DNA from: Bilabrum cf. latius
Taxonomy: Eukaryota
Direction: 5' to 3'
Length of the DNA: 64,000 nt
Assembly (NCBI GenBank): GCA_965178125.1
Contig: OZ237747.1
Span: 682,001 to 746,000, forward strand
The notes beneath the pieces were generated by a model. The model was not told the origin of the DNA. It did no database searches and was given only the letters and a program-made list of their open reading frames with translations. A program made the position numbers and the translations under genes. Positions 26,701 to 59,436 of the stretch are shown here, piece after piece. Positions within the stretch are counted from its first letter, which is position 1; the number at the start of each line of letters is the position of its first letter.

Positions 26701-29273
26701 ACGCCGAGCAGGCGGCTGCGACGGCCCGGGAGCGGCGGGACCTGGCGACGAGCAGCCAGCGGGAGGCTGCTGCGCGGGCCCAGGAGTGCGAGAGGGCCAT
26801 CGTGGAGGAGAGGCACATGCGGTCGGAGGCGGAGCGGACCGCGCGGGAGGCCGAGGCGGGCCGCAGGCACACCGAGTCGCTGCTGCAGTCCGCGAGGAGG
26901 GCGCTGGAGGCCAGGGAACAAGCCAACGAGGGCGAGGGTGCCCAGCGCTCCGCCGAGATCGCCGCCCGGGCCGCCGCGGAGCGCCGGGCGGCCGCTGCCG
27001 ACGCCAGGGCGGGCGAGGCCGCCGAGGCCCTGAGGCAGGCCCAGGCCGCCGCCGAGCACGCCGAGCGTCGCGCAGCAGACGCCGAGTCCCGGGCCTCGGC
27101 CGCCCTGAAGGAGGCCTCCGAGGCGCAGGCCATCGCGGGGGAGGCGAGGGCGGCTGCGGCGCGGAGCGAGGCGGCGGCGGAGGCAGAGCAGGCCGCTCGG
27201 CAGCGCACCGCCAAGCAGCTGGAGCGGGCCGAGGAAGCGGTGACGAGAGAGGCCGCGGGCAGGGCACAGGCAGTGCGGGAGCGGGACGCGCTCGCCCAGC
27301 TGTGCGAGAGGTCCGATGCGTCGAGGCAAGAGGCGGAGCGGTCCGTGGAGGAGGCCGCGGGGGCCGTGGAGCAGTGGAGGAAGCGGTGCGACGAGGCGGA
27401 AGAGGCCCTGCATGAGGCCAAGGGGAGGGCTAGGGAGGCGGAGGAGGAGGCGCAGGCCGCCAGGAGCGCTCTGGCGGGCAGGGACGCAGCGGCGGATGAC
27501 GCGACCAGCAGAGCCGAGGCGGAGCTAGAGGCGGCTAAAGCGGCGCAGAGGCGCGAGGCGGACGCCCGGGAGGCGGCGCGCAGGGTGGAGGCCCGGCTGG
27601 AAGACGCGGAATCGAGGCTGAGGCAGGCGGCCCGCGACATCAACGCGCGCGACAGGGCCAACCAGGAGCTGAGGAGGGCCCTTGCCGAGCAGAGGGAGAG
27701 GGCGGCCGCTGCTTCCAACGAGGCGAGGGAGAGGGCGGCCGAGGTGGAGAGCACCGGGAGCGACATGCACGCGCTAGTGAGGCAGGCCCAGCAGCTGACC
27801 GCAGAGGCCAGTTAGGAGAGGCGGAGGAGGTCCGAGGCAGAGGCCGCGCTGGAGCAGGAGGCTGCAAGATCGGCGGCCCTGAGGCAGCGGCTGAGCGACG
27901 CGTCCAGGGAGAGGGGCCAGCTGGAGGCGGCCTTCCGAACGGCGTGCGAAGAGCGGTCCGCGCTGCTTGCACGGTGCGAAGCCGCGGAGAGCCTTCGAGC
28001 CGACATCGAGAGGCGAGCGGCGCGCGCTGCCAGCGGTCGTGCGCACGCCGAGGAGGCTGCCCAGCAGCTGGAGGCGGCGCTGCAGGACGAGAGGATGGCG
28101 AGGCACGCGGCGGAGAGCGCCAACGAGAGGCTGAGCGCAGCCCTAGGGGACGCGAGGGGTCAGCTGCAGGGCGTGGCTGCGGGGATGGGCGAGGGCGGGA
28201 GGGAGCAGCAGCGGGCCGGCGCCACGCCCACGCAGCTGGTGGAGGCGGCGGCGCACGCCCGGGAGCTTGCTGCTGCTCGGCAGGAGGTGGAGCGCTGGAG
28301 GGCGTCGTGGGAGGAGAAGAGGGAGGAGTGCCAGCGGATGCAGAGGGCGGTGCGGGAGCTGCAGCTGCGGTGCGCCTCTCTGGAGCGGGTATGCGCCGAG
28401 GAGCGCATGCGGAACATCACGGCGCCGCGCGGTTTCGGCGGCGGGGTTGCTCCTGTCGACACAGGCCGGGGGGACGTGGGCGACGTGGACCGGTCCGGGT
28501 CAGGATCGGAGCACAGCGGCGGTCATGGCAGCAGTCACGGGCGGGTGGGTGGCTCCCAGGGCGGGTACGGGGACGGTGCAGATGCTGCCGAGGGCGATGA
28601 CGTGGCATCCGTGCCCATGGTGAGCGCTGACGTCCATCGATTCCTGGATGAGGAGGACGACGAGGAGGACGAGCAGGGGGCGGGGTCTGCTGGGCAGCGC
28701 GCCGGTGGCACGAGAGTCGGGGTGTCGATCCGCATGTCCAGGGACAGGGACAGGAACAGGGGTGGGGGTGGCGGTGGAAACCGGCAGGGCGATCTTGCCG
28801 GGTCGGAAGGATCCCAGGGAACAAGCGGGTCGGACGGCGTGGGCCAGGACCAGGACCTGCGCGGGGCTGCGCGAGCCCTCGAGGGTGTCGGCGGCAGCGG
28901 CAGGCGCAGCGGTATGACGAGTGGTTCTGCAAGTGTGACGAGTGAGAGGGATCGGTCGTCTCGATCCCGGATCGGCGTGTCTCACGGGCGCGGTCCCGGC
29001 GGGGCGACGGACGGCGCAGCGGGGTCGCGGCCCAGCACCGCCTCGAGCAGCGGCGGCAAGGGGCGTGGGGCCGGTGAGGCCGGTGCGAGGGCGGGTCACC
29101 AGGGACTTGACGCGAGCGAAGACGGGGAGGGTTCCCTGGCATCGTTCGAGAACGAGCTGGGAGAGGCTCTGGGGGCCGGATACGGTCGTGATGGCGACGA
29201 AGACGGCGAGGGCGAGGGATTAGGCGAGGACGGGGAGGACAACGACGATATGGATCAAGACGAAACGGAGTAA
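23784..29273 (+). CDS. CEP135/BLD10-like centriolar coiled-coil protein (4 in-frame TAG; ends in TAA)
   Basis: LRALGYDEPADRESAPLLQRLLDDLVATTE...PLQTECARLVRENNQLHLEL matches the CEP135 N-terminal signature (LGY..L..E..PLV.KLF.DLVHTTE...ENARL.RENN.L.LEL) and is followed by a long A/E/R-rich coiled coil. TAG at 24048, 24138, 24543, 27813; TAA at 29271-29273. Alternative start at 23853. Confidence 0.75.
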
Positions 29274-34661: not shown

Positions 34662-36554
34662 ATGCGTATCATGAGTTTCGGACTATACACTGTGTTAGGG
34701 GGTTTCATCTATATTCACTCTGCTCTGGCAGTTTCAAACTGCACTTTCGTGTCAGGGGTCGAGTACTTCCACCAAGACATCGCGAAGATCGCAACCAACG
34801 ATCAGATCGGGTGCTGCAACGCATGCATGTCGCACAGCGGATGCTCACACTTCACATTCGAGCCATCTGAGACACATGAATCGCATGATTGTTACCTGAA
34901 GAGCGGAAACGCGACGGTGGAGTCAAAGACTGGCGCAATCTCGGGTTGGTGCAAAGCGTCACCTCCTGGCCCTGCCATCAATGTGTCAGTGTCACTTGCC
35001 GGTAGGTCTCCAATTAGCACAACTAGTGGGTACTTTGCAGGCTGGAACATCGATACAAGCGCGAACCGGGGATTCTTTGAGCGCGACATTGGGCCGAACA
35101 ATCCCGAACTGCAGTATCTTGCAGCGGAGCTGAAGCCATCCGTCCTGAGATGCGGCGGTACAGGCAACGACCACATTTCATACTGTGGTTTCAATTCATC
35201 CACCGCGTCATCAACTTTGGGATCTGACCTCTGCCTGAACACGACATGGTGGAACAACCTGGTCTCTCTCTCAAGCGCATCGGGTGCCCCGCTGGTGTTC
35301 GGCCTGAATCTGCTCCATCGCACGAGCGATGACGAATGGGACTCGTCACAGGCAGAAGCCCTTCTCAGGTACGCGCTCGCTCGCGGGCAGACGATCTGGG
35401 GGCTGGAGCTCGGCAACGAGGAGGACGACCATTTCTCAGTGGACGCAACGGTCGATGGATTCGTGCAGCTGCAGCAGCTTGTCACGAACCTCTACGGGGA
35501 CAAGTCTGCCAACCCACACGGCCTACCGGTGCCGAAACTCCTTGGGCCAGACCCACATTCCCTTCACAAGTCCTCTGGGCTGCCTTCTGATCATGATTTT
35601 CAGTTCTTGGTGCAGTTCGCCCAGTAGACCCAGAGCAAGCACCCGGGCATGATACACGCCTATACGCACCACGAGTACACCGAGCTGACGGCAGACGTCG
35701 CACTTGACCCTGAGTTCTTGGATAATACTTACGGCATCGGACGTCAAGTGGTGGAAGCCATCCGTGCAGCGGGCCGACAGGCTGTACTTGACGCAACTGA
35801 TGCAGCGCCCGGCTCAGCCCAGCAGCAGCCCGAGATATGGGCGGGTGAGATTGCCGGACACAACGGCGGTGGGGTGCCCGGATTCGCGGGGATGCTGAGG
35901 CATAGCTACTGGTACGCTGATGCGCTGGGTGCGAAGGCAAAGGCTGGATACGGAGCGGTGTGTCGACAGGACCTCATCGGAGCTTCGTACGGTCTGCTGT
36001 CGGACTCGTTCGAAGCTGGCGAGGGGACACAGGCAATCCAGCACACTGCTTTGCGGGGCCAATTTGGTGCATAGACCACGCCAGGCGTGTCACCCATTAC
36101 GGTGCATCCTGATTATTGGGTCAATCTGGTGTTCAGTCGCGTATTGGGGACAGACGTGTTCAACGCAACAGTGGCGCAAGACGACTCCATGCAAGCAGCA
36201 GCCACTGGCAGTGGCACCGGGGGGTACCTGCGGGCCTACGCGCACAGCTGCGCCGGCAGCACCGATGCGGCGTGCCTTGCGCTCCTTCTGATCAACGTCA
36301 ACCAGGAGCAGGACTATAGCGTCCAGCTGCCTGAACAGCAGCAGGATAGTGCCGGACAGTGGAAAGTGTGGGCGCTGGGACAGGCAAGCGGCGCGGGTCT
36401 AGACTCCCCGCGGATAGCTCTCAATGGTATCGAGCTGGTTCGGTCCACTGACGGTAAGCTGCCATCGGCTGACCCAAAGGTGCTCGCGCCACCACCGTCC
36501 TCTGGTCGGTTGCTGGTACCCGCCACTTCGATCGTTTTTGTTTAGATCAGCTGA
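34662..36554 (+). CDS. Secreted heparanase-like glycoside hydrolase (GH79-like) with an N-terminal PAN/Apple domain; 3 in-frame TAG
   Basis: Signal peptide; PAN-like CCNACMSHSGCSHFTF..CYLKS; LRCGGTGND, FGLN, WGLELGNE (acid/base), YTHHEY, IWAGE (nucleophile), WYADALG, RQDLIGASYGLL, PDYW and LRAYAHSC. TAG at 35625, 36072, 36543; TGA stop at 36552-36554. Confidence 0.85.
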
Positions 36555-36636: not shown

Positions 36637-38916
36637 TCAGTGCACGAAGGCCACAAACTTCGCATTCTCTGGAGGACACGCCCCATCCAGCGTGTGCGAC
36701 CACCCAGCGTTCGCCCCCCCGCCGGGCAGCTTGCACCGGATCAGCTCCCTCGCAGTCGAGCTCGACCTGTGCGCATCCCCCCACCCGATCCACGAGTCCA
36801 GCTTGCCTAGACCCTCGCAGTTCTTGTCGTTCGACACGAAGTGGCGCTGTGATGCATCCATGCACCGGAAGATGGGCACTGGGCTGGGCTTCCACGTGCC
36901 TGGCACCACCCCATCTCGCATTCCGCCCAGCGGGCGCATGTCATCGCCGGGTCCCTGCCTCCACTGTCCCCCTCCCACCCCCACACCCGCACGCACCACT
37001 CCCGACGAGTCCGCCACCAGCCCCTCGCCCAACTCCCCATTCATCAGTGGCTCCGGCAAGCTCCGCACCTGGAAGGGTCCCTAAAGAGCAGCGGGGCCGT
37101 CGATCACCGAGCGATCCACGCAGACCTCCATGCCCCCGGGCCCGATGAAGTTGCAGTTCTCCTTCCAGGTCCCGCCGCGCACCAGCTCCTCAAACTCCGG
37201 CTTGCTCGATGTAAGCAGTGTCTGGCCCTGAGGTACCCCTGGCACGCCGGCCGCGATGGTCAGGGACCAAACAGGAGTCCAGCTCTCCAGCGATGTGTCA
37301 AACTCGCAGCACATTTCGCCTGCCACTGTGCACGGGAGCGAGCCCGCCCCAGCTGCGTCCGACCACAGCTGCACCTAGTCGCCCAGCAGCGCCTGCAGCC
37401 GGATGACTCGGTTGCAGCTGGCCGTGATGTTGATGTCCCGGGTGCCATGGGTTACAGTAGGCTCCAGATCTCTGCCAATGTCCTCTCCGTACGTGTCCAC
37501 GAAGAGCCTGTACTTGAGCGTGTCGTTGGGCAGACCTTGGGAGAATATGTAAGGGCTCTGCTGTCCGGATGGAAGCACGAACGGATTCTTCTGAGGCTAC
37601 GCACAGAGCTCGTTGTATCCGTCTAGGAACAGGAAATCGGATGGTTGGCGGATGGCGGTCCCAAACTGCCTCTTGAGAGTAGCCCCGTTGAGCTTGCCCG
37701 CACCTCCAAACGGTAGAGAAGCGTAGCTTGCCTGGTAGCTTGGGCTCACGCTCATCGCCGTACCATTGAAGCCGACGTTCGCACTCTTGGTCTGGTACTA
37801 ATTGCATGGAGACACGCCCCTGCCTCCAGTTAGCGTGGTGAAGTTGTTCCCCTCGTTTCTGCACCGAGCCATGAATGACCAACGGCCCTGATCAAACGAC
37901 TGTTGGCCAAACTCGGCCCACATCTCCTGCACAATCACGTCGTTGCGCCCACCGTTGGACTGCACCTTGGCCACCAGAGCAGGGTCAGGGGTGTTGGGCG
38001 TGATCCACAGCTTCTTGCCGCTCTTGGGATCCCTCTGGATCAGCCCCACAGAGTTGATCGTTGCGTTGTTGTAGATGGAATCCAAGTCGGCCTGCCACGT
38101 CGTGCAGCCGGTCACGAGCCTCCCCCACACCGCCAGGTTTGGAGTGTGCTCGCCCGCCTGTCGCATCTTGGTCCACTCGTCAGCCAGGGCCTGTGTGGGC
38201 CTGGCCTGGATCTCCAGCTGCTGATTGGAAGGGTGGCACAGGTTGGTTGCATCTGTGGCCACATAGTCCACGCCGGCCTGAAGGAGCTCCTGGGCCTGCC
38301 GCCGGGTAGTCTAGGGGATGTCTGGGCAATCGGGGATGTTTGGCGTGTCGCCGGGCTGGTGGCGGTAGACGCAGTAGTAGCCTGCAAGGGGCTTCGACAT
38401 ATAGTACAGGCCGTCAGCTTGCCCCTCCATGCCGTACTTGTCGTAGATGTCGCTCGTGTCGAGGGCTCCGTCGGACATGATAACCTCCTCGAGCGAGAGC
38501 TGCTTGCCGCCCTTCGCCGCGATCGCCGCGAGAGTGGTAGCAGCGGGGCCGTGCCATCCTGAATACTGGATGCCTACGATGGGACCTGTGCTTGAAGCGC
38601 CATGCACCTGGGATCGAATGGTAGATGAGCCGTTCGCAACAGCACCTGCCGATCTTGGCTGCACGTCAACGTAGCCAATGGCCGCGGGTGAAGAGCGTCC
38701 TGCGTTGGTACCATACAGATAGATCCTGGTGGCAAACGACAGATGCATAGATTGCTCTAGAACCTCGAAGCAGCTTGGATCGGTTGTGCTAGCTTGCGTT
38801 GGAACGAGGATTCCTGGCGGCTGTGCTAGCGCGAGCAGGCCGTTCAATGACTGTTGCGGGCAAACCTGAAACGCATATGTAGAATAAAGAAAGAGAGCGG
38901 TTGCGATGACTATCAT
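36637..38916 (-). CDS. Secreted putative glycoside hydrolase (GH99/GH71-like barrel motifs) with a Cys-containing C-terminal repeat domain; 5 in-frame TAG
   Basis: Signal-like MIVIATALFLYSTYAFQ; VGIQYSGWH, PLAGYYC, QAQELLQAGVDYVATDATN, FLFLDGYNE and FVDTYGEDIGRDLEP; C-terminal VPIFRC...HFVSNDKNCEG. TAG at 38311, 37798, 37597, 37375, 37081; TGA stop at 36637-36639. Confidence 0.6.
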
Positions 38917-39032
38917 GCCTTGCTTGTGCGGTTGAAGGGCCGCTGTTGGGGTGTGGTATTTTTCAGATCGTTTCAAAAGTACGCCTTACAAACGATGGAT
39001 TTCAACGGCAATCCAGAGATACACGCCCGAAA

Positions 39033-40988
39033 ATGGAGGTGATCGTTCAGTATGAAAAGAAACGCTCGGAATTTGGGCATCACTGTACCTTTGAGGACTC
39101 TCCTGCTAGGATTCTAGAGAGCACAGTCTCAAGGTGAGTTGTAGATCCACCGTTTTGTTGAGCGAATGCAGTACGGGGTGCACAAGAAGGCTCCAGCGCG
39201 CCCCTCATGTAATCTTGTTCGTGCCCATGTGTGCTTTTTGTGTTCAAAGTCCAACAAGGCGCCAGCTTGATGCATTGCGAACGCTTACCACCGAAGTTTC
39301 TCTCACTCCGCAGCCATGAGCACGACAAGAAGTTTTTGGTCCGTTAGCCCGCTGTCACCACGCTTGACACTTAGCCAAGGACCGCTGAACATAGCGTAAA
39401 TACAGATACTGTTATTTCCAAAAGCTAGGGCATGAAGCACACTGAGGGTGGATGGCCAGAGAACGTGGATGGTACCGAGGCAGAGCAGGTTGAAAGGTAC
39501 CTCAAGAAAGCAAACAAGGATCAGTCAACCAAAATGGCGGTTCAGACATTGGGATTTATCGTTGATACCTGCATCAAGTAGAACAATACGATCGATATTT
39601 ATGAGAACTACTTCGAGGGCGAGAGTGTTGATGTCTCGTCCGAGCCTCCCTCGGCCAAGGGACTCGCAGTGTTTCGAGATGCCGCCCGCGTCAAGCGAAC
39701 CGTCACCGGGATGCATTGGCACCCAGACGGAGACAAGCTAGCAGCCGCGTACTCCATCCTGAACTTTCAGGATGACCGCATGATGCACGGCCGCCTGCCG
39801 ATGAAGTCGTTCGTGTGGGATGTTGCCAACCCCAACCAGCCCATGAGCACGCTGGTGCCCCCCAGCCCGCTCGTGTCTCTTCGATGGAACCACAAGATGC
39901 ACACAGTGCTGGCAGGCGGTTCCTACAATGGTCTCGTCCACGTCTTCGACGTGAGGGCAGACCAGGGCTCCGTGCTCACGGCGCAGAGCACGAGCGAGGT
40001 GTCAGACTCGCACCACGACCCCGTCTACGGCGTGCATTGGATCAACAGCAAGACGAACAGGACCTTCGTGTCCACTTCCACTGATGGACAGCTCCTGTTC
40101 TGGGACATGAGTAACCTCTCCAAGCCGTACCAGGTCATGCACCTCTACGATAAGTCGCAGAGGCTGCTGGGCGGCTCCTCGATCGACTACAACCCGGAGG
40201 CCCAGGGCAAGTTTCTGGTAGGCACAGAGCAGGGCGTTGTGTGCCAGGTGAACACCAAGAAGAAGGGCAAAGACATGGTGTCGATGAAGGATGCAGGCGC
40301 TGGCAAGCACCACGGTCCCATCTACGACATCCACAGGAATCCGCAGTAGCCTGCTTACTTCATGACTGTGGGTGACTGGACCGCTCGCGTGTGGACAGAC
40401 GACAACGTGAGCACTCCTCTGCTCACCACGCCCTACTGCAAGAGCTATCTCACCGGCGGGGCGTGGTCTCCCACCCGAGCAGGCGTGTTCTTCACGATCC
40501 GGATGGACGGTCTCATGGACTGCTGGGACCTGTTCCACAGACAGAGCGCGGTGGCCTACAGCCACAAGGTCAGCGACTTTCCCTTGTCCAGCATTAGCGT
40601 GCAGGGGTCGGCGCAGTCGGGGGGCGGCAGGCTGCTTGCGGTGGGCGACAGCAGCGGAACCGTGTCTCTGCTGGAAGTGTCGAGTTCTCTGGCCCAGGGC
40701 AGCGCAGCTGAGAAGCAGCAGATCGACTCTATGCTCAAGAGGGAGAGCAACAGGGAGAGGAACCTGTTCCTTCGGTCCCAGGAGCTGGCAAGGAAGGCGC
40801 GGAGGGCCGAGCAGCAGGCCAGCGATGCGGTCTCCAAGGAGGCAGGGGGCAAGGAAGACGAGATGGAGGAGACGCTCAGGAAGGTCGACGCGGAGTTCTT
40901 GGCGATGATCAAGGAAGCGGAGGAGGACGACGACAAGGACGTGGAGGAGGACGAGGAAGATGGTGCCGCGAGCGGGGCGGGGCGATGA
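39033..40988 (+). CDS. DNAI2: Axonemal outer-arm dynein intermediate chain 2 (WD40) (exons 39033-39133 and 39314-40988; 5 in-frame TAG)
   Basis: MEVIVQYEKKRSEFG, GMKHTEGGWP, CIK*NNTIDIYENYF, WHPDG.KLAAAYS, SHHDPVY, FLVGTEQG, HHGPIY, TVGDWTARVW and WSPTRAGVFF. Intron GTGAG..CGCAG at 39134-39313. TAG at 39345, 39372, 39426, 39579, 40347; TGA stop. Confidence 0.9.
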
Positions 40989-41165
40989 TCTTGTCTTGTT
41001 TGGCGTAAGGTGGTGACATTTATGCGCAACACGTGTGGTTCTATCGAGTATCAGCGGCTTTCAAAGGGCTCAGCCAGTCAAACCCTGAAGAAGAAAAAGA
41101 AGAAGAAGACAAAAATTGGTTGCCGTAAATACATCTGCACTGAATTTTCGCAGGTTCTTTGGTCA

Positions 41166-44100
41166 ATGTCATCAGCTGGAAGATTAACTCATGCTTCGAA
41201 TGCCAGCTCTCGCTTGATATGGCGGCAAATAGTAGGCAGCGAGCTACCACGCCGGAGTTGGACTGGAGGCACATCGAGACGAACGCTGCACACATGCAGC
41301 AGCATTGTGTCACCGAAAGTTGCATTTGCCGGGAACCACGGATTCTGCGAGTTTTGTAAAGTTCGTCGAAGACTGCATACGGGTTCCACTAGTCGAGGAA
41401 GAGTACAAGGGAGCAGCGCCGGGCACAGCGGGCTGAATCGCAGCAGTCTGTCCCTGTGGCGGGAACCCAGTTGGACTTAGTCGCAAAAGTCGCAAGCTTT
41501 GAACAACATGTTGCACGCGATTCGGCACGGAACTCCTGTCGCTGCTGAAGCGGAGCGACTTGCAGTTCACCTGTGGCGGTCACGGCAAGTCCTTGAAATT
41601 CTGGCGATTGGGGAAACGCTAGCTCGTTGGAGCGCCTCGAGTGGTCTTTCTCAAAGCATTGCTTCGGTTTGGCTTGCATCCAGCCACTGGGTGGCCACAT
41701 CTAGCGGCTCGGAAGCGACCCGAGCCGAGTCAGTGGAGGCATCTGTTGCGATTGTGCTCGATGCCATTGCTCGATTGGTAGATGAACGCCTTATTACAGA
41801 TGCGTCCTTCTTAGAATCCAGTAAACCCGCTGGAATAGAGACTGAAATGAATTCTGCTGACTACTTTTTGCGAAAGCGGCGGCTGGTTGCCATCAGCAAG
41901 CACGTTTCCGAGTGGCATCTTGCCCGGCCAGGCTCCGACGCCCTCTCCGTCAATGCCTCAGATTCGGTCGCAGCCAGACGCCTTGAAGAGAGCGACGCTA
42001 AAACGAAGGCTGCTGTGCCTGGCGCGTTATTGGAAGAGATGCTTGGGTCGCCCTCCTCGACCATCACGCCACCACTGCTCGGCCGTCTGCTCTCCGTGTG
42101 CCTGGCGATGCCTCACGACAGTGGGATCCCTGCGGCGGTCGCACTGGTGAGAGTGGCTTGGAAGAGGTTTGGCGTACTGCCCACGCCACAGGACCACAGC
42201 CTTCTAGTGGAGAGATCCGCAGACTTTGCCGCCTACGTCGACAGTGCCCAGAGGGGCACTCAGCGCAGCGCAGCGGCGGGAGCTTCCACGCCGCACTCGT
42301 CACAATAGCAATCTCTTCCGCTGAACGGTCCTGGGAGTGAGCCCTGGCGCCTGGTAGCGTGGGGCAAGTACGAACAGGCTGCCTCTGTGTGGCTAGAGCG
42401 TCTGCTAAGCGCGCGAGGGCTTCGGGAGCCGCCCGCCCTCGCCAGGGCTAACTTGAGGCAGCTGTGCCAGGTGGCTGAATCGCAGCACCAAGAAAAAGGC
42501 ACCTCGTATGGTACGGCATCTACAGGCGGAGCTGCTGTAGGTAGCGGTCCAGAGCTGGTATCACCGGACCGTGTGCTGGAGGCCTGGATGGAGTCTGTGA
42601 AGGTGCCCAGTGGAGCAACGAAGGTTGACTCTGTTTTCCTGCCCGATGCAGATAGCCTGTGCACTGCAGTGCAATGCTTAGTATCCATGGGTGCATTGGA
42701 TCATGCTGCAGAGGCAGTTCGGGTCGCGCAGAGCAAATCGCACGAAGAGGCAGCTCGGATTCGAATGATGGAGGGTGTTGTTGAGCCTAGCTCGGGATTG
42801 CCTCCAAAGCTGTTGGCCGATTGGATTTCTGTCTTTGGGCTGCCTAAAGTGGCTCTTTGTACTGTCTCTAAAGCCCTTGGAGACGCAGGCAGGGTAGAGG
42901 ATGCAATGCAGCTACTCTCTGGCGAAGCTTAGGGCGTGGATGCTGCTCGTTCGGCTTCACCTCTCGCGCTGCTGCTTTCCTCTCTTGGCTACACATCTTA
43001 GGCGTACGGAGACATTATGCAATGGCAACGGGAGGCCACCAGCTAGCATAGCGACTCATCTTCCGGCCAACGATCTCTCCTGCAAGGCAGCATACGATCT
43101 GCAAGATACAGTGCGCGAGCCATGCGGCTCCATAGAGAGGCCGTCGTGGGGCAAGCCATCCGACTGCTGCTGCAGACCGGACGCCCAGATCAGGCAATGA
43201 ACGTAATGACTACCATGCGACCTACTCTAGTGCAAGATGTCAGCGTGTTGTTTTCCATTTGTAAGGCCATGGTGGAGCAGCAGCAGTGGAGGAAGCTGCG
43301 CCTGCTCGGCACTCTCTTCGAAATTGGCACGAAGTCTCGTGATTCTCATTAGCACATTAGGGCAGAAGAAGTGATCGCTCTCGAGGGTGCTCGAGCTGCC
43401 ATCTGTTTCGGTGCAGCGGCAACTGGTGATTTGCCCGGGATAGTTCAACTGCTGCAGTCTATGGATTCTCGACGGTTGCCACGGTCGAAACCGGACTCTA
43501 TGCCCAAGTCTGGGTACCCGTGGAGTGCCTGGCTGGGCAAGTCCGATGAAGCTATTGGGCAAGGTGTTCAGCCATCTGGTGGCAGCAGTATCGCATCGCT
43601 GCCCCTCACGCTAGTGGGGCTCGCTGGAGATGCAGCAGCGCGGGCAGCAGCGCTGCCCTCGATCGTCGGGCAGCAGTCCCCTGGCATGGACCCTGAGGTG
43701 GCAGATATAGATTCATCGGCTTGGTTTGGGCCCATAGTCATCCTGGCTCAAAGCCAATCCCCGACTGGACAAGTATTGGGTGGATTGGGCAGCGTGAGAA
43801 TGCCGCCTGGAGCTGCATGTCCAGGCGGGTATGCTGGTTCCGAGGCACCGCTCGGCAGCTCGCAGCTCCCGGCTCGAAGGAAGGCATGGGACGAGGCAGT
43901 GCAAGCCTATCGGCTGGGTCCAATCCGCAGCGCAATGCAGCGAGCAGGTAGCTTTGGTGAACTCGCGCAACAGGGCGCACCGGTTGCCAATGGAATCGCA
44001 GGACAGCAGGCTTTCACGCCCTCCCAGCTGCTGTTTGAGGCCGCCAGCAATCCTTCTTGGTCTGAGCGCAACTCGTTCGTATCACTGTCACCCAGGGGTC

Positions 44101-47100
44101 GCCAGCGTCAGGCGCTTGGCCTGCCACCGCTAGCACTCGAGATCCTATAGGCATCTGCTGAATATATCAAGCATATTCGCGAACATGGCTAGCAGCAGGT
44201 AGCTTCTGTAGCTCAGAGCGCTTGTGCCAAGGCAATTTTGTCGGCCGCGAGGACAGTAAGTAGAGGTCGAATGACTGTTAGCAACCTCGATGTGGTGGCG
44301 CTGCTGCTAGAGAGGGGTTGCTTTGAAGATGCCGCGACAGAGCTCACTGCTGCTCTTGTTCAGTGCAGCGACCAAGGCGAAGATGGCGACGGCCCATTGC
44401 TTCAACAGATGCCGTGGTGGTTGCCCTCCGTTGTCTTTGCTTCGGCAGCCCAAAGTGGAGCTGCTGCTCAGGCGACGCTGCTGGCTCGGACCATGCTTTC
44501 AATGCCAGTTGCGAGTCGCCGCTTGCAGGCTCACGTCGACCAAGGCAAACCGGCTTATCAGGTCGGGTTCCTTGCGATGATGTCGCAAGGTCACCACGCC
44601 TAGGCAGCAGAACTGGCCCTGGCATTCTAGCAAGCAGGATTGGTCAGACCTCTGGGTGGTCTTTCTTTCCTTGTCGATGTATGCTTAGCGGGGCTTCGTC
44701 CGGGATCAGCATCTGACCTTATTGGCGGGGCTTCAGCTGGCCGAAATTTCCCTATCAGTACTTCTTCGGTCGAGCGGAACGTAGGTGGCATGTTCGTTAA
44801 TGCAGTGACTCTGCACAATAAGCGAAGCAGCTCCGCTGCGAATCGTGCTGGCCGGCCCCAATCGATTCCAATCGTTGGAAGCGGCCAGGCAGCCGGCGAA
44901 GGCGTTCTATCCTATCTGAAGCTGCCACCGTTGCCGGGCACCCAAGGCCCCGCATCTGCTCGCCGAGCCCCTGCGGCTGCAGCGGTGCAGGGGACAGCCT
45001 CGGATGGCAGACTGCTGTCGTGGCAAGAGACCCCAGCTCTCACGCTTTGGCGGCTGTGCCACGCGACGACTTCAGAGAAGATGTAGGACGCCCGCAAAGA
45101 GACACTTCTGGCCCTTGCAGATGGAGCTGCTCTCAAGGCGCTGTCGGTATGTGGAGACCATTGGGGTGTCGCGAGGGTTCTCACTGGTCTAGCTATGCGA
45201 CCGAATCGGCACTTGCTGGCTCCTTCTGCGAGAAAGCAGGAAAGGGACAGTCGGGCCGGTATTCCGTGGTTTGACCCCAGCCCCTGTCTTAGTGGTGGAC
45301 TTGACGATGGTTCCGGGTGCACTCAGGCTGTGCGTAGAGCTGCGCATGCGTGCGTAGATGCGGCGCAGGGGAGGGGTACTGCCGTGTCTCACGGTCGGCT
45401 GCGAAATGCTTGTGCGAAAGCCGCTGAGCATCACGATGCATTTGCATGGTAGCGACAGCGAAGCTGGATCATCGAAAATTTGCAGCGTGCTTGGAGTGGC
45501 AGTGTTATGCAAGCTGGGCAGCTGCCCGGGAAGAGCAGCCGTCCGGTCTTCCGTCTGCCGAGGCCGCAAGGTGCTTCGAATGATGGAGGCGCGCTTGGTG
45601 CTTCGAGCACCTTCCCGCCCATCTGGGCTCTTCTCGATGCCATTCGAGAGGGGACTCGCCCTCATCCTATGGTGCCAGTGCTACGAGTGGCCCAGTTGTC
45701 ATTAGCTGCGGTGCTGGACGGCACTGAGTCAATCTTGCCGTCGACCCTGGGGTCAGTGCCGCGGTCAGCTCGTGTAGTAGAGTGCAGCGCGCCCTCATCC
45801 AGTGCCGGCACTCCGCTGCTTGACATGGTTTCAGGTGCTCCGAAAGGAAACAAGAAGCTGCCTGGAGGGCCAATTAGTCTGCCTGGATACGATGCGCGCG
45901 AACTTGTCGCGCTCACGGATGCACTCAAGCGTGATATGCGAACTCCCGACAAACTAGTGGCTTGCAGTGTGCTAGCGGCGACAACAGCGTGGAGCTGTGC
46001 CAGCCTCGGATTGCCAATGAGTCCAACTTCTCTCGCATCATTGATTGATGTGCTGAGTAGTGCAATGGACGACACCACAGCGGTGTCAGTGCTGTTAGAC
46101 CGAGCAGGATCAGGATCGGTCGCGGCTACCCAAGGTAAGGTGGCAGAAGGCAAGGTTGCGAGTGGCAACACAGCGGAGAGCCCAGAGTAGCACAGCGCGC
46201 TAGTCTAGAAACAGTGGGACAGCATGCTGCAAGTAGGTTCTTTAGCACTGCTCGGCGGGATAGCGCGATCAAAGCACCCAGTCGCGGGATCAGACGACGT
46301 GTGGAACAAGGCCATTCGGCTTGGCGTGTCGTGCAGGCTGCCTCACTCGGACATTGGAACGCTCGTGGAGATGGCCCTCTAGAGCTATGCTGTGCTGGAT
46401 GCCCTCGTCCTGTAGTAGGCTGCTGATGCGATGAGTGCTGGCGGAATGGAACAAGCCGCATGGGTATGTCGTGGCTTGGCCGGCGAGGGGTTGCAAGCTG
46501 AGAGCTAGCAGAGACTGTGTAGCAGCTGCTGGACAACGCAGTCTGCTAGTCGTGTTCTGTCTGTGTCTTTCAAGCCCGGTATATCGCGTGGAGAGGTGCC
46601 GTCGGGCCTTGGCAAGTTGGTTGTTCGTGTCGGCGCAAGGCGGACGGGTCATGTCCAGGACGAATCGAGTGGCGACAAGATGCACAGCGGTCCCGACGCA
46701 GGCGTTGCCCAAGCTGTGCCAAAGCAGCTCGAACAGCCTGCCACAGCTCGACTAGACATACACTCGAGTGGACTACAAGTTCAACAACCACCAGCAGGGC
46801 GTTTACAATCCGACCCTCTGCCATCAGCAGATACCGCTTTTGGGTCGGTACCAGACGAGCGCGATGTAGTGCTGGATCAAGAGGACCAGGGTATCGCGCT
46901 TCCGTCCGGGCTGCACGATCTGCTGCAGCGACTGGAGGCGGAAGATGCAGTGTATCGCCGAGCGATGCCGCTGCAGGGAGGTCCTGACGATGCCGATGCA
47001 TTTGCGGACCTGTTTGGCCTGGAGGAGGGCGATGAAATGCTGGATGCAAGGAGCGACGGTGCGACGATCGACCCACAGTTAAGCGTTGAGGTGGAAAGCG

Positions 47101-47609
47101 ACGAAGATGAAGTTGAAAGCGACGCGAGCGATGAAGATGGCACGGATATTTCAGCACTTGGGGATCACGCCGATGAGATGGGTAGTGAAGGGGGCGCCCT
47201 AGCAACCGGTTGGCTAGCTGGTGAAGACCACGCCTTCTTCGCGCGAAGCCGATTTGCACCCATGGCTACCAGTGGGAGAGATCGCGCCGCAACCGGGCCA
47301 GATGCCCAGGCTGCCCTGTCAGTTGGTTGGTGGAAGGCGGTGCAGCAACGAGCGTAGCACGGTCTAGAGCTGCGTCGTAGGGTCAGCTAGGACTGGTACG
47401 GAATGGGCGCATCCGAATCTGGTGGCTCTAGTGCCTCTCACCGAGGCAACGAGACAGGAGCCCTCGTGGAAAGGTCTGCAAGGCGTGACTAGCAGCAGGG
47501 TGAGGGCGACGCCGGGGATCATCCATGGGCGTCAGTTGGAATTGGGCAGTCACCAGCTGGTGAAGTGGGGGACGGGGGCGGCACTAACGGTGCCAACCAC
47601 AGGCAGTAA
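41166..47609 (+). CDS. About 2147-aa protein of unknown function with a possible mitochondrial presequence and degenerate PPR-like helical repeats (21 in-frame TAG; ends in TAA)
   Basis: A 6.4-kb single frame with no TAA or TGA until 47607. The N-terminus is R/S-rich and poor in acidic residues. LCTVSKALGDAGRVEDAMQLL and GQAIRLLLQTGRPDQAMNVMTTM resemble PPR units. Confidence 0.65.
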
Positions 47610-48457
47610 CTAGGCCATCGTGTGCACTGCTAGTCTAGCTCTTTTGTTTGATGTGGGCAGAAACCTGGAACCCGAGCTTCGAGCCCATCAACAGTGTGCT
47701 GGCGCAGATGCGACGTGGGGTCGCACGGGTCCAAGCTGGGCTGCCCGGCGGCGCCGAGGCCCAGAATTGCCGGCTGCAAGCTTGTCTAGAACAATTGAAA
47801 CTATCTGCGCGTAAATTATGAAATCAGTGTGGCTATCAATCGAATCAAAAGTTGCAAACCAGGTCGCCTCGCTACTGTTACGTGCAATTGCAAGTCGGTC
47901 TCCGAGCAAGCAGCGTCGTCATCGATAGATGGCGCGAGCCCCAACGCCGTAACTGGATCAAATGTTGATGCCCACCTACATGATCTATGACAGACCCTCA
48001 AAACTAAGCACAAAGCGCCTCGAGCGATGCGCTGCTATCATATGCTGGCCCCGGTTGACACCCCTTCAATCCCTGGAGCAGTTGCTCAGCTGCCCTGTGC
48101 TATCTGCCTGCTACCATCTCTTCACGCTCCAATCAAATGACTCTGGTCTAAAACCCCACCAGGCATTTGTTTCTTGTTCTTGAGCCAGGCCATCAGCCCT
48201 CACTTCGCAGCAGAACTGATGCTGCATACGTCTCCTAATATTGCGGGGCTGAGGCAACGTGTTGCGAACTCGATGCAGCCTCTATCGCGGCGTTAGGACG
48301 CCAAAAGCGGCTCGGCTACGCCAAAGTAGAGGCCAGCTTGTCTCAAGACACACCTTTTTGCTAGCCAGACTGCCCGCAGCAAGCAACACACAGCACGTCG
48401 CGGTGCGTGGGCTAGGAAACGACTGCTTTGCATCATGCCGCATGTCTGCTAGACTAA

Positions 48458-49446
48458 TCACACCAGCAGGACTGCGTTGATGCAGCCGTCATTCTCTGGA
48501 ACATTCGTGACCTGGGCGTACTTGCCCCAAACAACCTTGCCTGACGGTGTGACGAGTCCGAGGTCGCTGACATTCACCTCGATGACTGTCCCCTTGGTGA
48601 TCACGCCGAGGGTCGTGTACATCTGAGAAGAGGGGTTCTTCTTGACACCCAAAATATCGAGCTGCACGGTGGTTTTCAATTCCGGGTGGGTGACGTTGGC
48701 CTTCTTGAACCGGAGTCCCATGGGCCTGATGAACCGCTCGTACTTGGGTGGCTTGCGGGTGAAGCCCTCGCCCACGTACGTGACTTTCGTGACCATGCGC
48801 TTCCACGCCTTCTTCTGCCGCTTGCCGGTCTTGATGACCTTGAACATCTCGTCGTCGGCGACGGGCTTGACCTTGGGAACCGGCACGGACCACTTGCCGG
48901 CCTTCTCCTTTCGCTTCTGTTTCACAGTGTTGGAGAGGACCTTGGCGCGAGCAGAGCCATCTCGGTCAAGCAAATACGCTGGGAGAGCGAGCTCCGCCTT
49001 TGGCTCCTTCTTCTTTTTTGCCTTCGCCTCCTTCTCTGAATGCTCGGCAATCCTGTGAGAACATGGTGAGGTTGATCTGGCAAGCATTGCATCAAGGTTA
49101 CACTTCCACAACATCAAATAAATTAATCTGCTATCTTACGTTTTCTTCATCTGAATCTTCTCCTTGTATCGCTTCTGATGAATCAGTTTGGCTCTAATTC
49201 CACGCGCTTTCTTGGCCATCTGGGAAGATACATGGGCTGCGCGCGCCTCTCGCTTGCGCTGTTTTTCATTATGATCCAAGCGCTTGCCGTAGCGCTTCTA
49301 CCACAGCTCCATGTGCTCATTTTGGGGCTGCGATCGCGAGTGAGAATCAAGGTACACACAGAAAACCCGTAATAATCCATTCTTTCGATACTTTACGCAG
49401 TGAAGTAGAGATATAATAGTGATATCAAATGATTTTAGCTAACCAT
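48458..49446 (-). CDS. NSA2: Ribosome biogenesis protein NSA2 (exons 49446-49444, 49327-49140, 49052-48458; 1 in-frame TAG)
   Basis: [67 protein letters not shown] and the canonical end [18 protein letters not shown] at 49298-49300. Confidence 0.95.
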
Positions 49447-49805
49447 TGTATCTGGAACGTATTATTCTGATCGCAGTCTTCCAAAAGGTGTTCCCGAACC
49501 GAACTATGAACAATTCCGGTTATTAATGTAACGAAATGAATCATAACTCAAACATGGAGGTTGTCAACATTTCCTCCAACAAATAGCTAGGAAGGCAGTG
49601 TCATTGAGCACTGCGTGGGTGACTTATTTTAAAGTATCTATTGTGCGCCTATAGGCTCTGAGAATATCAATAAGATTGACCGACTGCACCTGTGAAGCTG
49701 TCTTGGTTGCCACCAACGGGTGTCGACACACCGAGTAGCCAAGGAGCAGGTTGGGTTTAGCAATATTGCGTAAGCTTTCTACGCTGAATTAATTTAGTTG
49801 CCAGA

Positions 49806-53683: not shown

Positions 53684-54069
53684 TCAGTTCAGCTGCGAAA
53701 ATGGAAAATGCTTGTGCAAAGAATACAAACGATAGCATTGCACGGTCTAGCGTTGCCTGGCCTAGTCCGTTAGGCAAGCTCTGCGTTGCCGTTGGTGCTC
53801 ACCTTCTTGAACCCGATCAAAGGGGCACGCTCGCGGAAGCACCGACGGCAGATGTTCAAGTGATACTTTCGGATGAGGCCGATGCGTGCAGAGCACACGC
53901 GGCTGCGCGACCATAACAAGAGGAGGAGCTGGAAACATTGTGATGGCAGTGTCCGAGGCGTGCAATTGGTCCCCACTTGATGCGTCAAATAGGCGAATCA
54001 GGTGCCTACTCACCACTGGCGGCCACCCTTAGCGCGATCGCGCGGATGCGTGTTCTGGAGCGAAGGCAT
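53684..54069 (-). CDS. RPS29: 40S ribosomal protein S29 (uS14), 54 aa (exons 54069-54014, 53902-53803, 53692-53684)
   Basis: Spliced product [54 protein letters not shown] with a CxxC..CxxC zinc motif; GTGAG..CAG introns. The only gene in the window without a TAG. Confidence 0.92.
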
Positions 54070-54228: not shown

Positions 54229-54844
54229 ATGGCTGTTAGGCCGAAGAAGCTTTTTGATGCCGTATAGGACCTTCCGCCGAGGAAGGGATTCCCCAATATT
54301 GTGAAATCGTGAGATAAGCAAAGCAACGGAGCTGCTGGTACACTCTGCCCTTTGTTATCCTCAGTACGACACCAACGATTTTGGGTAGCATGCAAAATTG
54401 ATATTGCAGTGTATATGGGCCAAATGTTAGGCGGGGCCCTGGTGGTGTGGCCCTGCTGGGCATTCTCGTAGGCACCACAGTTGTGTCTTGGGCGTACTGG
54501 TTGCGCAGCCGGCAGGACGATGAGTGAGAACATCCGAACGTAGCAGCTGTTGCCATGTAGAATGTTTTCGTGGTTGTTTCATGCTTCCCGAGTTACTGCT
54601 GGTCCTGAACGTGCACCGCAGCTACTTTCGGCTGGCAAAGATGAACGAGAGGTACGAACGTGCGCATGTCTTGCAAGCTAGGGAAGAAGCTTCGTATGCC
54701 AAGAGATTGAAGCGGCAAATTGACCTTGAGCGAGAATGGAGTAAGGATGTGCCTGGTTACGTAGTGAACCAGAGCGTGTATTACACAAAGAAGGGCGAGA
54801 GGCCGCACATTGATCCTACGGACCCTCGCATGAAGCGCCACTGA
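54229..54844 (+). CDS. NDUFA13: Mitochondrial complex I subunit NDUFA13/B16.6/GRIM-19 (exons 54229-54308, 54410-54523, 54622-54844; 1 in-frame TAG)
   Basis: V*DLPPRKGFPNI (family motif QDMPP.GGY), RRGPGG plus a TM helix, LQARE and KDVPGYVVNQSVY. Phase-consistent GTGAG..CAG introns. TAG at 54265-54267; TGA stop. Confidence 0.85.
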
Positions 54845-55126: not shown

Positions 55127-56801
55127 TCACTTGCCGGCGCCGCCGGTGGCAGCTCCAGGCGCGGAGGCGGCAGCAGCAGCAGCGGCCGACGCACCCGGCG
55201 CATCCGAGTCGTAGTTGAGCGAGGGCCGCAGCCATCGCTCCACCTCCTCCACGGGCATGCCCTTCCTGGAGGCATAGTCCGCGATCTGGTCCTGGCCCAG
55301 CTTGCCAACGGCGAAGTACTCGGCCTCCTCGTTGGCGAAGACAAGCGCCGACACGGCGGACGCGGGCAGCATCGCGAGCGAATCGGTCAGCTTGAGGCCG
55401 ATGGACTCCTCCACATTCAGCAGCTTCCACATGGTGTTCTTCTCCGTGTGGTCGGGCTGCGAGGGGTACCCAGGCGCGGGCCGAATCCCGTCGTACTTGA
55501 CCTTGAGGAGATCGCCCTTGGACAAAGTGGCTGCCTCCTCGGGCGCGAAGCCCCAGAGCTCGCGCCTCATGCGCGCGTGCAGCTGCTCGGCGAATGCCTC
55601 GGCGATCCGGTCCGCCAGCGCCTGCAGCATGATCTTGGAGTAGTCGTCGTGGTCCGCCTCGAACTCCTTGAGCTTGTCCTCCACACCGAACACGCCCACA
55701 GCGAACGCGCCCAGGTAGTCTGCCTTGCCGCTCGCCTTGCTGGCGATGAAATCGCTCAGGCACAGGTAGGGCTCGTCCGTCTCCTTCTCCGCCTGCTGCC
55801 GCAGCCCGGCGTACACTGCCTGCGCCTTGGCACCCTTGCGGCCCTCCTCGTCGTCGCCCGTCTCCGTGCCGTAGATCTCGATGTCGTCACCGACAGAGTT
55901 GGCAGGGAAGATGCCGCAGACCCCGCGGGCCTCCAGCCACTCCTCCTCCACGATCTGGTTGAGCATGGCGAGCGCGTCGTTGTGCAGCTTCTTCGCTTCC
56001 TCGCCCACGTCGGCGTCGTTGAAGATCTTGGGGTATCCCCTGTTCGGGTACTTGCCTCTGAGCTCCCATGTCTGGAAGAAGGGGTTCCAGTCGATGTAGT
56101 CGAGCAGCTCTGCGATGTTCTGGTCCTCGATGACGGTGATTCCCTTCGCCTTGGGCTTGGGGGGGTCCTTGCGCGCCGCCCAGTCGATCTGCATGCCCTT
56201 GCCCCTGACCTCCTCGATGGGTAGGTACACCCTGTCCTCCAGTCCGGCGTAGTGCTCCTCCCTCATCTCCTCGTACAGGTCATCGATCTCCTGCACGTAC
56301 TCTGTCCGCCTGGCCTTGTCCTCGTCCAGCAGGCTCTGCACCACCGTCACGGAGCGGGATGCGTCAAGCACGTGGATGACCGGGTGGTCCGTGGTGAAGT
56401 AGTGAGGGGCGACCTTGACGGCCGTGTGCATGCGCGACGTGGTGGCGCCGCCGATCAGCAGGGGCAGGTTGAGGCCGGCCTTGGCCATCTGCTTGGCCAC
56501 AAACACCATCTCGTCCAGTGAGGGAGTGATGAGGCCAGACAGGCCGATCACGTCCACCTTCTCCTCGATGGCCCTCTTGATGATCTGGTCGCAGGGCTGC
56601 ATGACGCCCATGTCGATCACCTTGTAGTTGTTGCAGCCAAGCACCACGCCCACGATGTTCTTGCCGATGTCGTGCACATCACCCTTGACAGTAGCCATCA
56701 GCACCTTGCCGGCGTACATGTCGTCCCCTGCGGTAGAAGGGTCCACTCCCATCTTCTCCATCTTGAGCTTCTTCTCCTCTTCCATGAAGGGGATCAGGTG
56801 C

Positions 56802-56835
<34 letters not shown>

Positions 56836-57428
56836 TCACCTGGGGCAGGAACATCTTGCCGCTGCCGAACAGGTCACCGACCACGTTCATGCCGCCCATG
56901 AGGGGTCCCTCGATCACCTTGAGTGGCACCTAGAGAAGCTGCCGGGCCTCCTCCGTGTCCTCGATGATGTACTTGGGCAGGCCCTTGACAAGGCTGTACG
57001 TCAGGCGCTCCTCGATCGGCTTGCTGCGCCAGGCCTCGGCAGACACGGCGGCCACGACCCCCCCGGCCTTGGCAGCGTCCGCCTTCTCCTTCTCAAGAAG
57101 CGACCGCTCGAGCAGCCTCTCGGTTGCGTCGTCCCTGCGACACAGCACGGCATCCTCCACGAGCTCGAGGAGGTCCTTGGGGATGTCATCGTAGACCTGG
57201 AGCATGCCCGCGTTCACGATGCCCATGTCCATGCCGGCCTGGGTTGCGTGGTACAAGAACGCGGAGTGCATCGATTCGCGGATCACGTTGACGCCGCGGA
57301 AGCCGAATGACAGGTTGGACACGCCGCCGCTGATCTTCGCGTGCGGGCACTGCTTCTTGATCTCGCTGCAGGCCTCGATGAAGTCCAGGCCGTACCGGTT
57401 GTGCTCCTCGATACCAGTGGCAATTGTC

Positions 57429-57460
<32 letters not shown>

Positions 57461-59436
57461 AGGGAACCCGACCTTGGGTCCCACCAGCATGTCGTAGGAT
57501 CGCTTGCAGATGCGGATCTTCTCGTCTCTGGTGGCCGCCTGGCCCTCCTCGTCGAAGGCCATGACCACACAGGCGGCACCGTAGCGCTTGACGAGCTTGG
57601 CGTGCTCGATAAACTTCTCCTCGCCCACCTTGAGGGAGATAGAGTTCACGATGCACTTGCCCTGGGCGTTCTTGAGGCCCATCTCCACGATCTCGAACTT
57701 GCTCGAGTCCACCATCAGAGGCACCCGCGCGATGTCAGGCTCGGTGGCAAGGATCCGCAGGAATTTCTGCATGGCCTTGACACCGTCCAGCATGCCGTCG
57801 TCCACGTTGACGTCGATGACCTGTGCGCCATCCTCCACCTGCTTGCGCGCCACCGCCATGGCCTCCATGTAGTTGCCCTCCAGTATGAGGCGCTTGAACT
57901 TGCGGCTGCCCGCGATGTTGCACCTCTCGCCGATGTTGACGAACCCGAGCTGGTCGTCCACCTTGGTGTGCTCCAGCCCCGACAGAATCATGACGGGCTC
58001 CCTCTCCTTCCACTCGCGGGGCTTGTGCTTGGACACAGCCGTGGCGATGGCGTTAATGTGCTCAGGGGTCGACCCGCAGCACCCTCCCGCGAGGTTGAGC
58101 AGCCCTTCCTCCGCGAAATCGCCCAGGTCCTCCCCCATCTCTTCCGGGGTGGCGTCGTACCCACCCATGGCGTTGGGCAGGCCGGCGTTGGGGTACGTGA
58201 AGAAGTACGTGTCGGCGAAGGCAGCGAGCCTCTGCACGAACGGCTTCATCTGCTTGGCGCCGAGTGCGCAGTTGAGGCCGACGGCGAAGGGCTTGGCGTG
58301 CCTGATCGAGGTATAGAAGGCCTCGCCGGTCTGCCCGCTGAGAGTCCGACCGGACTGGTCCACTAGAGTGCCTGACACGAACACTGGAAGCTTCCTGCCG
58401 ATCTTTTCGAACACCTGGTCCACGGCAAAGAGGGCCGCTTTTGCGTTCGCAGTGTCGAAGATGGTCTCCACCAGCACAACGTCGATGCCTCCCTCGATGA
58501 GTGCCTCGACTTGCTGGCTGTACGCCACCACCAGCTCGTCAAAGGTCACGTTGCGGACGGAGGGGTCCTCCACGTCGGGACTAATACTGAGCGTGCGGTT
58601 GGTAGGGCCCACGGCGCCCAGCACGAAGCGGGGCCTGCTGGGGTCCTTCGCCGTGATCTCGTCGCAGGCGCGGCGCGCAATCCTGGCGCTCTCACGGTTC
58701 AGCTCAGGGACGAGGTCTTCCATTCCGTAGTCGGCCTGGGCAATCGTAGTGCCGCTGAAAGTGTTAGTTTCCACGAAGTCTGCGCCGCCCTCCAGGTACT
58801 GGCAATGGATTTTGTGGATCACATCGGGCTGCGACAACGTCAGCACGTCGTTGTTGCCCTTGATGTCCATGTTGTAGTCCACGAAGCGCTCGCCGCGGAA
58901 ATCTTCCTCTTCGAACTTGTGCTTCTGCGAGATAAGTTCAGAGGCATTTTACGAGCTTCGGGCGCAGTAGCATCCAACGCACAGCTAATCGCTCTCGAGC
59001 GCAAGCAACACACGAGGTCGCAACCGGCCGCATTAAAAATGCCAGACGGTGGTCTCTGCCCGTAAATCTCATAATGTAATTTGTACTGTATGCGGGATGG
59101 CAACTCCACGCCAACGAATAAGTCCAAACACCATGTGCCCCCGCCCACCAACTCGCTTACCTGGATCATAGTCCCCATGGCACCGTCGATCACCATGATT
59201 CTCTGCTTCAGAGTTTTGTGAAGATACTCAAAGATATCAGACTTGCCTGCATTGGAGAAAATAATGGAGTTGTCGGGCTGGAGGCGTAGGAGTATGCAGT
59301 CGCTGACGTCGCCAACTACCGCAGCCGAATAGATCCATGATTAACTCCTCTTACCGCGAATATACGTCTCCCCGGTGTCAGCAGAACTAGAGTTTGCTGG
59401 CCCGGCATCGCCTCCTGCACCCGATACTGCTGCCAT
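55127..59436 (-). CDS. MTR: Cobalamin-dependent methionine synthase MetH (exons 59436-59355, 59246-59161, 58924-55127; 1 in-frame TAG)
   Basis: [45 protein letters not shown]12-binding [20 protein letters not shown] and the activation-domain motif [12 protein letters not shown] at 56930-56932 lies within the cap domain ([18 protein letters not shown]); TGA stop at 55127-55129. Confidence 0.97.

Follow-up and report, generated by a model that had tools for sequence, protein, structure and literature searches.

Evidence for UAG as a glutamine codon, with UAA and UGA kept as stop codons, in nuclear DNA of a Cafeteria-related stramenopile

In the 64,000-nucleotide stretch of genomic DNA analyzed here (contig OZ237747.1, positions 682,001 to 746,000; the whole stretch is called the window), UAG very probably encodes glutamine and both UAA and UGA act as stop codons. 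A probability of about 0.9 was assigned to this reading, which corresponds to NCBI code 15 and to the code of Iotanema spirale. The gene from which the question arose spans 6.4 kb, and its frame comprises 2,147 sense codons, among which there are 21 TAG, no TGA and no internal TAA. These counts agree with the original prediction, in which this frame was described as open across 21 TAG and closed by TAA, and in which the free use of CAA, CAG and TAG was claimed. CAA was found 45 times and CAG 59 times, so that TAG made up 17% of the glutamine codons of the gene and was not avoided in its frame.

A codon census was made for 19 gene models of the window, comprising 17,881 codons. These models contained 96 in-frame TAG and neither TAA nor TGA, and TAG was needed as a stop in none of them. 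In the two off-frames of the same sequences, 77 TAA, 214 TAG and 573 TGA were counted among 35,762 triplets. At this rate, 107 in-frame TAG were expected against the 96 observed, and since TAG was not avoided, it was concluded to be a sense codon, accounting for 12% of the 796 glutamine codons of the census. For TAA, 38.5 in-frame codons were expected at the off-frame rate (P of none approximately 2e-17), and 25 if the ratio of TAA to TAG followed that of CAA to CAG (P of none approximately 2e-10). TAA is therefore absent as a sense codon from the window. One of the models, that of the TPR gene, has a doubtful 5' part; its share of the census was 1,143 codons with 4 TAG, and the conclusions were unaffected by it. 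UGA was the commoner stop (16 of the 19 models) and UAA the rarer (3 of 19, at 29271, 47607 and 59621). Thus, the predicted lack of internal TAA and the three TAA ends proved correct, as did the role of UGA as the major stop, the count of which was 16 of 19 and not 17 of 20 as claimed.

The census bears on the possibility that the code is of the ciliate type (table 6), in which UAA and UAG both encode glutamine; TAA would then be rare because of GC-richness, and the terminal TAAs would be sense codons lying before the true TGA. The GC3 of the window genes is indeed high (0.56-0.88), and an in-frame TGA follows each TAA within 14-81 codons. However, CAA accounted for 21% of CAR codons overall, yet none of the 96 TAR codons was TAA, which is the discrepancy already valued at 2e-10. 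In the 6.4-kb gene, where 43% of CAR codons are CAA, the absence of TAA had by itself a probability of approximately 7e-6. When ORFs were delimited by TGA only, those containing the three TAAs were 2,220, 1,872 and 1,540 codons long, and the TAAs lay 14, 19 and 81 codons before their ends, that is, within the last 0.6-5% (joint chance approximately 4e-6). Because cutting at TGA alone added only these few codons, TAA occurs only at the very ends of the frames. Three genes of the window and three genes of a sister species described below end in TAA, the sister species has TAA at conserved ends where the window has TGA, and the 81-codon extension past 59621 would overlap the start of the neighboring MetH gene. 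A table 6 code was therefore considered highly improbable.

The lineage of the window was examined through its gene content. Pfam and solved-structure matches showed that the window, a GenBank sequence with a G+C content of approximately 61%, contains ordinary eukaryotic nuclear genes, and long ORFs were dense on both strands once TAG was read through. For the product of one of these genes, outer-arm dynein intermediate chain 2 (IC2), the closest named homologue was that of Cafeteria roenbergensis (61% identity), and the remaining named matches were all from stramenopiles. A quick tree of this one gene comprised 39 rows, with 38 of the 119 other homologues; in it, the window sequence and the Cafeteria group were placed in one clade with an SH-aLRT of 99, with ochrophytes and oomycetes on the other side. 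These data indicate that the window is nuclear DNA and that the source organism is most likely a heterotrophic stramenopile, GC-rich and poor in introns, with the bicosoecid Cafeteria as a close relative.

A sister species was represented by two metagenome contigs (L001 and L009; together approximately 17 kb, 56-58% G+C), the IC2 of which was 93% identical to that of the window at the protein level and 81% identical at the DNA level. The two contigs carry orthologues of IC2, of the gene at 36637 (hereafter, the 36637 gene), of the GH79 gene and of the N-terminus of the 6.4-kb gene. No in-frame TAA was found in 4,228 codons of this species. The gene order differed from that of the window between 34611 and 47609: the orthologue of the 6.4-kb gene lay on the other side of the orthologue of the 36637 gene and on the opposite strand, an ABC transporter gene followed IC2, and the GH79 gene was inverted. 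Stop usage seems to differ between the two species: TGA and TAA closed 16 and 3 genes of the window, at 61% G+C, and 1 and 3 genes in the 17 kb of the sister species, numbers too small to be tested.

The amino acid specified by TAG was deduced from aligned positions. The TAG at residue 104 of IC2 corresponded to a column with Q in 119 of 119 homologues, and the other four IC2 TAG columns varied; in the closest relatives, Q stood at three of the five sites. Comparison of the window with L001 and L009 gave 35 codon pairs containing TAG, of which 17 were TAG/CAG, 1 was TAG/CAA, 2 were TAG/TAG and 15 were other pairs. All seven pairs from IC2 belonged to the first or third kind (5 TAG/CAG and 2 TAG/TAG). 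None of the 35 partners was AAG, TTG, TCG, TGG or TAY. This pattern is that of synonymous C/T changes within glutamine. In fragments of an 87%-identical relative, Q was found at one of the two window TAG sites spanned by P0121 and at the single site spanned by P0122. The TAG sites of MetH and importin fell on variable or gapped positions when aligned with solved structures and were uninformative. On the evidence of these alignments, UAG is almost certainly read as glutamine.

Reading of UAG as serine, as in Scotinosphaera, was also considered since S was common at one of the IC2 TAG columns (52 of 119 homologues). It was ruled out by the column of invariant Q and by the CAG partners.

The database protein P0001, which corresponds to IC2 of the window, has Q at the TAG of residue 360, which shows that its gene caller read TAG as glutamine on that contig. 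Since P0001 was already translated in this way, full-length database proteins do not reveal the code of their organism. The fragments P0121-P0124 of close relatives break at TAG.

Protein ends were compared to determine the function of TAA. The sister orthologue of the 36637 gene ends with FVAYVH-TAA and the window gene with FVAFVH-TGA, at the same residue; reading through this TAA would join the gene in frame to its neighbor. The GH79 orthologue ends with SIVFLQIES-TAA and the window gene with SIVFV(TAG)IS-TGA, one residue apart. TAA likewise closes the ABC transporter gene on L009; for IC2, the stop is TGA in both species. At 59621, the protein of the window shares its C-terminus to the last residue with the 70%-identical orthologue P0125 (...ALDDASRLLKEIEQGI vs ...ALDDASRLLRKIENGV). 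P0125 was the one orthologue found with the 205-residue TAG-free tail of this gene; the last 799 residues, a low-complexity query compared at near lengths only, gave no match at E <=0.001. The extension that would follow readthrough at this site is Cys/Trp-rich. These aligned ends strongly indicate that UAA is a working stop at conserved protein ends, and the predicted retention of UAA as a minor stop is supported by the sister TAA/TGA pairs and by the C-terminus of P0125. The accompanying statement that no TAA-closed protein had an alignable C-terminus does not hold, given the 59621 protein and the two TAA ends of the sister species.

The 59621 stop and the ATG of MetH at 59436 lie on the same strand with approximately 185 nt between them (59437-59620), and this interval must hold a 3' end and a promoter with the 5' UTR.

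Transcription and splicing were studied with four public runs (X1, X5, X6 and X7) over positions 40500-60400 of the window (19.9 kb). Run X1 had a flat depth of 11.3 and skipped none of the ten introns; it thus behaved as DNA. In runs X5, X6 and X7, the depth was very uneven, and the contigs skipped 9, 6 and 8 of the ten introns, respectively. Because of the spliced contigs and the uneven depth, these three runs were read as RNA. The joints in their contigs defined ten GT-AG introns of 87-236 nt, from which the local donor consensus GT[AG]AG was derived, with GTAAGA as the commonest form (4 of 10).

These introns made it possible to weigh another explanation, in which TAA is unassigned and avoided, and the three TAA sites of the window serve as splice donors or are located past the real protein ends. 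All three TAAs are preceded by G, as had been cautioned in the original prediction, and GTAAGA at 59624, alone among the three sites, fits the donor consensus exactly. By contrast, GTAACT at 47606 and GTAAAA at 29270 do not fit it. No joint was found in the four runs at the covered sites 47606 and 59624, although ten introns were found in the same stretch, and a contig of X5 crosses the GTAA at 47606 unspliced and with 0 differences in a run that spliced nine of the ten neighboring introns. The caution therefore stands as to the G, but not as to the donor reading, and the predicted alternative of splicing at all three GTAA sites is contradicted at the two covered ones. Furthermore, the three TAA stops of the sister species are preceded by T, C and T and therefore cannot be GT donors. 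At 59621, which is the weakest of the read-covered sites on sequence alone, the TAA coincides with the end of the orthologue's gene call, and the short distance to the MetH ATG also argues against a continuation. Unassigned TAA was judged improbable, if slightly less so than table 6.

It was also considered that the TAGs might be corrected by U-to-C RNA editing or that the 6.4-kb frame might be a dead gene. In favor of this, the gene has the highest TAG density in the window (approximately 1%), and no Pfam family was found in its protein even at E up to 5 (the best being TFCD_C, E 0.059). However, a contig of X5 (41143-47829) covers the gene from end to end with 0 other letters, 0 gaps and no joint, and contigs of X6 carry the TAGs at 42306 and 47355 unchanged. 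UAG is thus unedited in the contigs of the intron-splicing runs, and RNA editing is excluded for the covered sites. TAG is also present in the conserved genes for IC2, MetH and importin. The remaining five frames of the same 6.4 kb contain 5-11 TAA, 15-40 TAG and 19-42 TGA each, and at off-frame rates, the chance of 2,147 codons without TAA and TGA was approximately 8e-18. In addition, the N-terminus of an orthologue was found on L001 (1-2676, minus strand; 40% identity over 763 residues, E 1.5e-132); this contig ends within the orthologue, the C-terminal part of which lies beyond it. Since the gene is spanned by a contig of a splicing run, is kept free of internal TAA and TGA, and possesses an orthologue at this E value, it is not dead. 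Of all the explanations considered, editing or gene death was the least probable.

Transcribed and fast-evolving, the 6.4-kb frame is an ordinary protein gene. Its fast evolution is seen from the 40% identity to the sister species, where IC2 keeps 93%. When its last 999 residues were compared with representative proteins, only four fragments were obtained, none of which reached the C-terminus, owing to a TAG 39 codons ahead of the stop. An earlier in-frame ATG is present at 41022, outside the X5 contig.

A context-dependent code of the Condylostoma or Blastocrithidia type, in which UAG or UAA is sense or stop depending on the distance to the 3' end, was about as improbable as table 6. Nothing positive was found for it, although two genes have a TAG 3 and 8 codons before TGA, and this TAG might in principle be where translation ends. 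In the small sample of 19 models, TAG is never required as a stop, and TAA is never internal; occasional termination at UAG may nevertheless occur. The GH79 TAG located three codons ahead of the TGA is matched by CAG in the sister species, with conserved residues following it.

Several points nevertheless weigh against UAG as glutamine beside two stop codons, in addition to the G before each window TAA and the consensus donor at 59624. There is circularity in the initial delimitation of ORFs, for which TAA was taken as a stop, and the listing of TGA-only ORFs cures this only partly. The sample is small (64 kb and 17 kb of a relative), and rare sense TAA may occur elsewhere in the genome. In 15 of the 35 TAG pairs, the partner is not a glutamine codon; ten of these pairs come from the alignment of the 6.4-kb protein, with its 41% identity. 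In one close relative, S corresponds to a TAG of the window. The RNA status of X5, X6 and X7 is an automatic guess, X5 even being labeled "probably DNA", and contigs drop rare isoforms. The match to P0125 is at the protein level and comes from a gene call in which the stop codon is not visible. The end at 29271, which lies outside the read stretch, is supported by its position and its poor donor fit, and by neither reads nor an orthologue. Finally, a tRNA scan of the 64-kb window gave 0 genes, the eRF1 gene does not lie in the window either, and the mechanism is thus a prediction.

The features of the window are listed in Table 1. The splice joints exposed the S8e-family, S29e and GRIM-19-like genes and the two 5' introns of MetH, and the three exposed genes are closed by UGA, which is consequently a stop. 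We take the S8e-family gene to be NSA2-like. Its contig starts at 47812, and the 6.4-kb gene, which is convergent with it, has a contig reaching to 47829; the 3' ends may thus abut or overlap by approximately 18 nt, contigs being no proof of transcript ends. At the other side of the 6.4-kb gene, an A-rich tract (41082-41117), which reads KKKKKKKTK in frame and was skipped as a repeat in the read comparison, separates it from the IC2 stop. In X6 and X7, the contigs of IC2 stop just short of this tract, at 40978 and 41034, and the tract may mark the 3' end of IC2. A loose T run at 53563 fits a poly(A) tail of the S29e/S14 gene. The coiled-coil gene has 72-75% G+C between 24000 and 28000 with purines in strong excess on its coding strand (AT skew up to 0.47, GC skew 0.23), and its product consists of long Ala/Glu/Arg-rich helices. 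An ORF at 654-2078 (minus strand, 415 codons, 5 TAG) had no Pfam match and an unusual preference for CAA over CAG (10:2); a stretch of it may resemble the DDE motif region of pogo/Tc5-type transposases.

Table 1. Genes and TAA stop codons of the window, in window coordinates
Feature	Position	Strand	In-frame TAG	Stop	Remarks
Coiled-coil protein gene	23784..29273	+	4	TAA	1,829 codons
TAA stop of coiled-coil gene	29271	+			Context GAG TAA AAC; next TGA 19 codons on
GH79/PAN-domain gene	34662..36554	+	3	TGA	
36637 gene	36637..38985	-	5	TGA	Without known family
Outer-arm dynein intermediate chain 2 (IC2)	39270..40988	+	5	TGA	
6.4-kb gene	41166..47609	+	21	TAA	CDS of 2,147-residue protein
TAA stop of 6.4-kb gene	47607..47609	+			Context CAG TAA CTA; next in-frame TGA 14 codons on
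S8e-family gene	48458..49446	-	1	TGA	Two introns; PF01201, E 2e-37
Ribosomal protein S29e/S14 gene	53684..54069	-		TGA	Two introns; PF00253, E 8e-6, one 33-residue exon piece at 25.8 bits (cut-off 27)
GRIM-19/NDUFA13-like gene	54229..54844	+	1	TGA	Two introns; PF06212, E 4e-5, last exon at 24 bits (cut-off 25)
Cobalamin-dependent methionine synthase (MetH)	55127..59436	-	1	TGA	Two 5' introns (236, 108 nt)
Gene open at 5' end	59621..64000	-	7	TAA	
TAA stop of gene open at 5' end	59623-59621	-			Context GTG TAA GAC; read-through 81 codons
IPO5-type importin, TPR protein, short-chain dehydrogenase, Pex2/12-RING protein					Identified by Pfam/structures

A code in which UAG alone is changed to glutamine is a rare variant, and it is already known from a few other lineages. 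The decoupling of UAG from UAA, which was claimed in the original prediction, is present here but is not new in itself: it was described in 2017 in Iotanema and the rhizarian exLh (PMC5304391), and UAG-only changes were reported with leucine in exLh (PMC5304391), with serine in Scotinosphaera and with glutamine or leucine in Protocruzia and phyllopharyngean ciliates (PMC11687900). The closest likeness is to Iotanema spirale (Metamonada, Fornicata), in which UAG encodes glutamine, UAA and UGA are stops, and a tRNA-Gln(CUA) with an altered eRF1 was predicted (PMC5304391). Iotanema, however, is an anaerobic metamonad, whereas the window belongs to a stramenopile with genes for complex I and MetH. 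The primary stop of Iotanema is UAA, as opposed to UGA here, and its code is known from a transcriptome, whereas genomic DNA exists in the present case.

NCBI table 15 ("Blepharisma nuclei; some phages: TAG=Q") gave the same long ORFs as translation with TAG as Q by hand, but it is a formal table, and its named users are ciliates and phages, with no stramenopiles. In the UAG-only glutamine ciliates (two phyllopharyngean lineages and Protocruzia tuzeti; PMC11687900), UAA is likewise still a stop, and the changes had independent, recent origins; their macronuclear genomes are AT-rich, in contrast to a GC-rich stramenopile with introns of approximately 100 nt. UAG also encodes glutamine under the UAR codes (table 6), which are used by many ciliates, hexamitin diplomonads, ulvophycean algae, Streblomastix and Amoeboaphelidium (PMC11687900). 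Under these codes, UAA is glutamine as well, whereas here TAA ends proteins. The rhizarian exLh and Scotinosphaera share the decoupling and the UAA stop (PMC5304391, PMC11687900) but differ in the amino acid. In the present comparison, partners for leucine or serine numbered 2 of 35 (CTC and CTA, both from the alignment with 41% identity), with no TTG or TCG, against 18 for glutamine.

No report of a nuclear code change in any stramenopile was found in the literature searched, most subscription journals being outside its reach. The chances are about even that the window represents the first nuclear genetic-code change in stramenopiles, that is, an independent and fairly recent change of UAG to glutamine with UAA and UGA kept, shared by two or more lineages of species level within a clade related to Cafeteria. 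The two seen here are the window and the metagenome relative, and in comparisons of them, TAG and CAG are still freely exchanged.

The mechanism may be similar to that proposed for Iotanema. It was argued that a sense UAG beside a stop UAA leaves CUA as the sole anticodon, and that a tRNA(CUA) arises most simply from a duplicated tRNA-Gln(CUG); the motifs of the eRF1 N-domain for recognition of UAG are GTS, NIKS and YxCxxxF, and the positions Thr32 and Leu69 (human numbering) are also named there (PMC5304391). By analogy with that work, the organism would possess a tRNA-Gln with the anticodon CUA, pairing with UAG but not with UAA, and its eRF1 would have lost recognition of UAG and kept that of UAA and UGA.

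For annotation, the choice of the table matters. Being broken at TAG, the fragments P0121-P0124 show how annotation with the standard code breaks genes; table 6 would overrun real TAA stops, and table 15 is the one that should be used.

A change in the meaning of UAA is nearly always accompanied by one in UAG, and from the cases in which the two part it is evident that the translation machinery is able to distinguish between them. Every independent decoupling helps to establish which changes in eRF1 and tRNA suffice. A GC-rich, free-living stramenopile with UGA as the main stop and with a genome assembly is a setting unlike those of Iotanema and the ciliates. If the reading proposed here is true, the tRNA-Gln(CUA) and the eRF1 change would be readable directly from genomic DNA, which was beyond the reach of the 2017 work on Iotanema and exLh.

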